Assembly: GCA_016840465.1 (NCBI GenBank)
Contig: JAEOSH010000001.1
Location: forward strand, 1-32,000
Length of the DNA stretch: 32,000 bases
Origin: Candidatus Baldrarchaeum yapensis
Lineage (GTDB): Archaea > Asgardarchaeota > Baldrarchaeia > Baldrarchaeales > Baldrarchaeaceae
Direction of reading: 5' to 3'
Below, piece by piece: positions 1,420 to 27,522 of this stretch; the stretch's first letter is position 1, and every line of letters starts with the position of its first letter. Below the pieces are notes generated by a model. The model saw nothing but the letters and a program-made list of their open reading frames with translations, had not been told where the DNA came from and made no database searches. Made by a program: the position numbers and the translations under genes.

Positions 1420-1475
1420 GCCGATGAAGAGTGCCTGCGTCGCTGACCTGTGATGATCCCACGCAGGGCTGAGGT
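1420..1475 (+). ncRNA. Archaeal box C/D guide sRNA (sRNA-1)
   Basis: Box C AUGAAGA (1424-1430), 12-nt guide GUGCCUGCGUCG, box D' CUGA (1443-1446), box C' GUGAUGA (1450-1456), 12-nt guide UCCCACGCAGGG, box D CUGA (1469-1472); short GCC/GGU terminal stem; intergenic, GC-rich patch. Confidence 0.85.
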
Positions 1476-2150
1476 GTGGGGGTATCGATGATGGAAAATC
1501 CCCATTCGGGTCAAAGAAATCCGCATGAGGAATATCATGAGGTTATCGCTGTTCCTACACGTGTTTGCCATCATATTATTGATGTGCTTTGCTATTCTAT
1601 AATTTCGGTTTTAACTGGTGAAATTTCTATTTGTGTGGAGAAGTTTGAAAATTCTTTGGTAATTATAAACGATTCGCAAGATATCTTACTTAAAATAGGG
1701 ATTTCTCGTAGTAATAATGATAAAGTGACAGTAAGTCTAATAGGCAATCTTCCGATCAGAAGCAATTCATTAAAAAAGGAGATTATAAGAAAAACGTCGG
1801 AGATTTTAGCAATTTTAGCGGGTATGAGAGATGATTTACGTACAGATGTAATAGAGTTAATGCACAGTGTGTGTTTTCTGGAAAACTGCGGTTTTTATAT
1901 TAGGAGACGTAATTTGCAGAGTGCGTACATATTTCTTAATAGGGCGCGAGAAAGCCTCCTTAATACAAAATTGTCTTCAGAACCGATAAACGAGATAGTA
2001 TTGAAATCATTCCGCCTATTAAGCATCATATACAGACTTTTAGGGAAAGAGAGTATATCTCCGAGTCTCCTAGAGCGTATGTTTACAATAGTGTCCACAT
2101 GGAAAAACACGCTTATATTCACACTTGATGGACTGATGCATAAAGCGTGA
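1476..2150 (+). CDS. Hypothetical protein, mostly helical C-terminal half; true start uncertain (possibly GTG 1584)
   Basis: 224-codon ORF heading a tightly packed + strand run. The N-terminal ~35 codons look atypical and overlap a structured GC-rich patch. Confidence 0.6.
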   Translation: MGVSMMENPHSGQRNPHEEYHEVIAVPTRVCHHIIDVLCYSIISVLTGEISICVEKFENSLVIINDSQDILLKIGISRSNNDKVTVSLIGNLPIRSNSLKKEIIRKTSEILAILAGMRDDLRTDVIELMHSVCFLENCGFYIRRRNLQSAYIFLNRARESLLNTKLSSEPINEIVLKSFRLLSIIYRLLGKESISPSLLERMFTIVSTWKNTLIFTLDGLMHKA

Positions 2151-27454: not shown

Positions 27455-27522
27455 TTCATGTGTCAGGAGACCTTCGCCTCATCATCTTCTCAGGTCGGCT
27501 CTTCCTACATCATCCACATGAA
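27455..27522 (-). ncRNA. Archaeal box C/D guide sRNA (sRNA-2)
   Basis: Minus strand: UUCAUGUG-G-AUGAUGU-AGGAAGAGCCGAC-CUGA-GAAG-AUGAUGA-GGCGAAGGUCUC-CUGA-CACAUGAA. Perfect 8-bp terminal stem, all four boxes, 12-13-nt guides; D' guide complementary to the 23S sequence GUCGGCUCUUCC. Confidence 0.93.

Follow-up and report, generated by a model that had tools for sequence, protein, structure and literature searches.

The 32,000-nucleotide stretch of Candidatus Baldrarchaeum yapensis DNA analyzed here (the window) contains, at positions 1420 to 1475 of the plus strand, what had been predicted to be a box C/D sRNA whose two guides are complementary to each other. The locus raises the question of whether it encodes a genuine guide RNA, which RNAs the two guides address, and what the complementarity between them means. 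Judged from its sequence, the locus is a genuine archaeal box C/D guide sRNA of canonical design, 56 nt long and with two 12-nt guides. A terminal stem of 3 bp joins GCC (1420 to 1422) to GGU (1473 to 1475). Enclosed by it are the C box AUGAAGA (1424 to 1430, assigned from the sequence and Rfam alignments), the D' guide (1431 to 1442, with C1438 at +5), the D' box CUGA (1443 to 1446), a 3-nt loop (1447 to 1449), the C' box GUGAUGA (1450 to 1456), the D guide (1457 to 1468, with C1464 at +5) and the D box CUGA (1469 to 1472), the C box forming a K-turn with D and the C' box a K-loop with D'. This coordinate check bears out the box order and the exact 12-nt spacers of the original prediction. 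The order C, D', C', D with tandem G·A cores is that of archaeal C/D sRNAs, and the one departure of the C box from RUGAUGA puts an A-U pair where the C and D boxes would otherwise form U·U. Indeed, the two spacers of 12 nt, the 56-nt length and the 3-bp stem all agree with the archaeal norm of spacers of about 12 nt, a length of 50 to 60 nt and a short terminal stem (PMC7229835).

Searches of Rfam gave sub-threshold matches to many archaeal C/D families exactly over 1420 to 1475, the best with E values of 2e-5 to 5e-4; no family reached its gathering threshold (bit scores of 28 to 30 against thresholds of 40 to 45), and no Rfam family covers the D guide. Four-box matches with at most one mismatch occur five times in the host genome and not once in each of three shuffled genomes. 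The host genome itself (2.27 Mb, 96% complete and the sole representative of its family in the collection used) encodes fibrillarin, Nop5 and L7Ae.

The D guide was originally said to be complementary to the junction of variable arm and T stem in tRNA-Leu, and the host genes confirm it. Four of the five host tRNA-Leu genes (GAG, UAG, CAG and UAA) read CCUGCGUGGG at the site, and the guide forms ten contiguous Watson-Crick pairs with it from +2 to +11 (1458 to 1467). The guide therefore has at least nine contiguous Watson-Crick pairs to a stable RNA, position +5 included, and ten pairs is the length that the enzyme accommodates (PMC7229835). At +5, C1464 faces the G before C48, which is nt 59 of the 88-nt tRNA-Leu(GAG). 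The fifth species, tRNA-Leu(CAA), has an A at the target position and escapes the guide; the computed duplex energies are -21.0 kcal/mol with the four true targets and -14.3 kcal/mol with Leu(CAA). The host 16S and 23S rRNAs contain no comparable site for the D guide. This search included the recovered parts of the 16S, whose gap was closed with a 5' end from contig C78 and a middle part from an assembly identical over both overlaps; in those parts, no good match exists for either guide. Matches of either guide to mRNAs are at chance level at genome scale. On its own, the D guide match is only mildly significant (P 0.058 against shuffles), so the case for tRNA-Leu targeting rests on conservation.

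A BLAST-type DNA search of 60 relatives gave chance hits only, the exact box-guide-box pattern is absent from 399 other genomes of the phylum, and a relaxed pattern rises above background only in two genomes of a sister family. Same-species assemblies are identical across the sRNA and thus give no covariation. Outside the phylum, a C'-guide-D unit with this D guide is present in Caldisphaera, Thermogladius, Desulfurococcales, Nezhaarchaeales and others, and of 121 Thermoprotei genomes, 63 have the guide after a C' box, against 0 hits in controls. As an unbiased test, 53 sRNAs were chosen by their other guide only. The D guide is present in all 53; 41 read CCCGCGCAGG, ten carry changes that still pair with the tRNA, and in two the edge position (+2) is mismatched. 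All ten positions pair, by Watson-Crick or G·U pairs, in 51 of the 53, and the C at +5 is invariant. The tRNA-Leu target motif was unchanged in 20 of 22 genomes checked and, because it never varies, no two-sided compensatory change is available; a covariation of the A/G change in the guide with U50/C50 of the tRNA was rejected, the tRNA being invariant and the change a wobble. Some further hits were set aside: one exact guide (in G009) has no boxes and is part of a coding sequence, and pattern hits in Poseidoniales and bacteria have no upstream C and D' boxes. An uncultured archaeon (L039:2462-2570) carries a C'-guide-D half directly after a tRNA gene, again with no upstream C or D' box, which is possibly a permuted or tRNA-linked half sRNA.

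Both the +5 rule and this conservation across distant archaea support the methylation site that was originally predicted, the G before C48. The pairing is well supported, and the D guide most likely directs 2'-O-methylation of this G in four tRNA-Leu species. By the established mechanism, L7Ae would bind the C/D K-turn and the C'/D' K-loop and Nop5-fibrillarin would assemble; the D guide would pair with unfolded (precursor) tRNA-Leu across the junction of variable arm and T stem, and fibrillarin would 2'-O-methylate the G before C48 in Leu(GAG, UAG, CAG, UAA).

Closer relatives show what has changed beside this guide. In the sister family, a longer sRNA lies in synteny beside the same small membrane ORF and a zinc-finger-like gene. 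Its D guide is retained, with one U·G wobble to tRNA-Leu, and its D' guide pairs with U8 to C16 of tRNA-Leu, aiming at G10 in five of six copies; by predicted pairing it is a dual tRNA-Leu guide. These copies (L063:2495-2575, L064, L066, L070, L071 and L129) have an intact internal C'/D' motif with a long loop, degenerate terminal C and D boxes, and a D guide that is invariant among them. The D' partners found beside this D guide are of a tRNA-Glu type, a tRNA-Leu G10 type and the present one. By these comparisons the D guide is the ancient, conserved half of the sRNA and the D' guide a half that was replaced more than once, because the sister orthologue keeps the former with a different version of the latter.

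The D guide might instead bind tRNA-Leu as a folding chaperone, leaving the G unmethylated or not stoichiometrically methylated. A C/D-guided methylation at G47 of tRNA-Leu(UAA) was predicted in Pyrococcus furiosus and went undetected by mass spectrometry of partial coverage (PMC7668247), and the sister-family orthologue retains the D guide without a recognizable D box; it may be a guide that binds its target but does not methylate it, which would invert the pattern known from eukaryotes. That the P. furiosus coverage was partial counts against a chaperone, as do the invariant distance to an intact D box and the invariant +5 C in Thermoprotei, and we regard this explanation as unlikely.

In contrast to the D guide, which matches four tRNA-Leu in the search of host tRNAs and rRNAs, the D' guide finds the perfect target proposed for it in no host rRNA or tRNA. 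That such a target lies hidden in the missing 5' half of the 16S is ruled out by the recovered sequence. Across the complete 16S, 23S and tRNA set, no D' site reaches nine contiguous Watson-Crick pairs, the best having eight, in 23S. The best matches are 23S G88 (10 bp with one G·U), tRNA-Ser(UGA) G26 and a 16S site (10 bp with two G·U), and the first variable-arm loop G of all five tRNA-Leu (9 bp with one or two G·U); by shuffling, a match as strong as the best one anywhere in stable RNA has P 0.34. Searches of 251 Thermoproteota and 40 Asgard genomes did not find the guide. By these results, the D' guide is a replacement specific to this lineage, and each of its matches includes wobble pairs. 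One orphan guide is usual for tRNA-targeting sRNAs (80% in Pyrobaculum); that the D' guide is such an orphan seems rather unlikely to us, and that it targets 16S extremely so.

Three targets remain to be weighed. In one version of the explanation that we favor, the sRNA is a dual guide for a single tRNA, with D' on the loop G at nt 51 of Leu-GAG and D on nt 59, eight bases apart, the two sites being used one after the other with melting of the variable arm. The D' guide pairs over 9 bp (+2 to +10, with one or two G·U) with all five tRNA-Leu, a fit with P 0.013 by shuffling and 0.006 for random guides, and its G at +6 accommodates GUAG as well as GCAG loops. Under a relaxed rule for second guides (within 100 nt, at most one mismatch and a combined score of at least 32; PMC6009581), the pair scores 36 to 37, with overlapping sites and rival targets that score equally. 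The sister-family orthologue is likewise dual for tRNA-Leu, its D' guide aimed at G10. However, the duplexes (-15.4 to -17.4 kcal/mol) are weaker than that with 23S (-19.2 kcal/mol), those of the two guides overlap by one base and cannot coexist, dual guides for the same tRNA are rare (4 of 32 families), and the fit and the self-complement are not independent features (P 0.042 given the 7-bp complement). We entertain this version as a tentative possibility, with more doubt than belief. That the D' guide addresses tRNA G26 (towards m2,2Gm26), in tRNA-Ser and more weakly in Leu(GAG), Glu and Asp, has a precedent in Methanopyrus kandleri C/D sRNA 27 (Su et al. 2013, PMC3695527; Dennis et al. 2015). 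In this sR27, the ten bases directly before the D' box are identical to those of the present D' guide and stand in register with them; its target was published as a prediction on tRNA-Gly position 27, and M. kandleri tRNA-Gly and tRNA-Arg read GGACG(26)CGGGCCU. Host Ser(UGA) gives ten pairs, two of them G·U, U at +3 and +7 suits mixed A/G targets, and m2,2Gm26 has been observed in thermophilic archaea. No host tRNA, however, contains a perfect site of the M. kandleri type, 58% of shuffled guides attain a score of at least 18, and a search of 291 other genomes did not find the guide, so that the identity with sR27 may be convergent; the probability that we give to G26 is fairly low. A target at 23S rRNA G88 (host numbering, domain I) would make the RNA a mixed tRNA/rRNA guide. 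It is the best single match (10 bp, one G·U, -19.2 kcal/mol) and remained so after the 16S gap was closed, but its 8 contiguous Watson-Crick pairs fall short of the 9 bp usually required, as good a score somewhere is reached by 34% of shuffled guides, and no such guide occurs in 489 published sRNAs searched or in 251 Thermoproteota. We hold the probability of a 23S target to be low.

Other observations touch on the same RNAs. A second host C/D sRNA, L135 (C58:7132-7182, minus strand), is aimed at tRNA-Leu by predicted pairing: its D' guide forms 9 bp with all five tRNA-Leu and points to the U immediately 5' of the G addressed by the sRNA at 1420 to 1475, with a perfect match to Leu(CAA), the species that escapes the latter sRNA. 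The D guide of L135 matches the D arm over 8 bp (G13). In IHOsR408, the D' guide and its register are those of L135. The tRNA-Leu(CAA) genes of the sister family (L076-L078, G002-G004) contain two or three introns, one of which, inside the variable loop, would split the D' candidate site. A related assembly (L187:670-1441) has a 16S intron encoding a LAGLIDADG-like protein that is absent from the host 16S.

The complementarity between the guides is real: CCUGCGU at 1434 to 1440, in the D' guide, is the exact reverse complement of ACGCAGG at 1461 to 1467, in the D guide, just as first described. Its probability is about 0.01 with both guides shuffled, about 0.03 being expected over 15 host sRNAs, and it occurs in 1 of 18 host sRNAs, the other 17 candidates having at most 4 bp. 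The original prediction that the free RNA can close into a helix holds when the boxes are kept unpaired, the guide-guide helix then having a probability above 0.9 at temperatures up to 70 C; for the naked RNA, this probability is about 0.3 to 0.37, and shuffled sequences fold just as well (z 0.46). At -12.9 kcal/mol, the self-helix is much weaker than the D-target duplex at -21.0 kcal/mol, and therefore a true target can displace it. In homologues examined with other D' guides, the complement spans 2 to 5 bp only and the 7-bp pairing is absent.

The variable arm of tRNA-Leu is a near-palindrome, centered between the GG and the CC of GGCC and perfect over 12 nt in Leu(UAA). All D' candidate targets share the core GCGYRGG, a near reverse complement of the D target CCUGCG, and therefore a guide to any of them complements the D guide over five or six bases. 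Beyond the pairs dictated in this way there is U1440 only, a single transition; the seventh self-pair, U1440-A1461, is not explained by the tRNA-Leu and 23S sites because it weakens pairing to them. Among guides that fit the variable loop site of tRNA-Leu, three of five have a complement to the D guide of at least 6 bp. The guide-guide helix looks like a by-product, mostly dictated by the near-palindromic tRNA motif. The alternative first offered, that the guides target the two strands of one helix, finds no support: the only RNA that matches both is tRNA-Leu, whose sites are adjacent, overlap by one base and form the halves of a loopless palindrome.

Limited guide availability through self-pairing, also raised at the outset, is physically possible but conserved in no homologue examined. 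In its strongest form, the self-pairing would have been selected, the D' guide masking the D guide so that only perfect targets are admitted, as a filter on specificity or temperature. The singularity of the 7-bp complement among the 18 host sRNAs, its persistence to 70 C with the boxes blocked and the preference of U1440 for self over target all fit such a mask, as does the finding that Leu(CAA), at -14.3 kcal/mol, barely beats the self-helix whereas the four true targets win clearly. Against it stand the absence of the pairing from all homologues examined, the five or six of seven pairs that follow from any candidate target, and same-species assemblies without the sequence variation that covariation needs; moreover, Nop5 keeps the two guides apart in the assembled RNP. 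We consider a selected mask very unlikely. An extension in which the D' arm covers the D arm and also holds the neighboring half of the palindromic variable arm, giving a self-gated RNP that methylates two G residues eight bases apart, has in our estimation a very small chance of being correct; the literature searched holds no description of a self-gated guide of such a kind, and the self-complement would matter only if it were shown to gate activity. The best explanation overall, to which we give a probability of about 0.72, is a genuine C/D sRNA with a conserved D guide for tRNA-Leu, a lineage-specific D' guide and a by-product helix.

The sRNA is located between a divergent 46-aa ORF and a 220-aa ORF (1488 to 2150) that starts 13 nt after it. 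The spacer towards the 46-aa ORF (1322 to 1419, as read from the DNA) contains the TATA-like words TTAAAA (1377 to 1382) and TATAAAA (1411 to 1417); a sigma-70 promoter scan is uninformative for archaea. A Shine-Dalgarno-like GAGGUG (1471 to 1476, plus strand) overlaps the D box and precedes the ATG at 1488 by 11 nt, with a computed duplex energy of -12.1 kcal/mol with the host anti-SD. L7Ae bound to the transcript before processing could impede translation of the 220-aa ORF. This ORF has no Pfam match, and no homologue was found outside the host species; a 227-aa ORF at the same position in relatives has no detectable similarity to it. Elsewhere in the window, another C/D sRNA (27460 to 27513, minus strand) has a D' guide that pairs over 11 bp with host 23S nt 2732 and no strong target for its D guide. 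Positions 1 to 19, the contig start, are what we take to be a Nextera/Tn5 adapter end (AGATGTGTATAAGAGACAG) left untrimmed in the assembly.

Box order, spacing and size are common to this sRNA and generic archaeal C/D sRNAs such as Rfam snoPyro_CD, sR1 and sR5, although it scores below their gathering thresholds (40 to 45). The guide listed for tRNA-Leu(UAA) G47 of P. furiosus (Lowe snoRNAdb, in Wolff et al. 2020, PMC7668247) belongs to the same predicted site class, compared by description only, and the modification was undetected there. M. kandleri sRNA 27 resembles the present RNA in having a predicted tRNA target around G26, like one D' candidate here, but has a different D guide and, unlike our host, well-matching tRNA-Gly and tRNA-Arg sites in its own genome. 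In the Thermoprotei family, the other guide is, on our reading, complementary to the anticodon loop of tRNA-Glu(UUC) and places U34 at +5; it is highly conserved and has no Rfam family.

The closest known relatives are two members of that family, Sac-sR114 of Sulfolobus acidocaldarius and IHOsR306 of Ignicoccus hospitalis (also Iho-sR306). Sequencing showed both to be abundant RNAs (Dennis et al. 2015, PMC4644070); neither has an rRNA target, IHOsR306 being listed as such in Additional file 1, and the paper assigns no target to either. The D guide is thus already known from Sulfolobus and Ignicoccus, and the sRNA is largely ordinary. What the present locus adds is the extension of a guide conserved in about half of Thermoprotei to an Asgard-type lineage, a precise site, the G before C48 of tRNA-Leu, for a guide whose published members have no assigned target, and a case of one guide held fixed while its partner was swapped three times. 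The D' guide of Sac-sR114 and IHOsR306 is of the GCUCGAAAGG type, unrelated to that at 1420 to 1475, and the guide-guide complement is absent from them, unlike here. Judged by its guides, then, the 1420-1475 sRNA is not a full member of the family, its D' guide not being of the GCUCGAAAGG type, but shares one guide with it: the D guide conforms to CCC(G/A)CGCAGG at +2 to +11 and stands in the same register, reading CCCGCGCAGG in Sac-sR114 and IHOsR306 and CCCACGCAGG here, with G·U replacing A-U, and both kinds of sRNA have 12-nt spacers and a D guide that addresses no rRNA.
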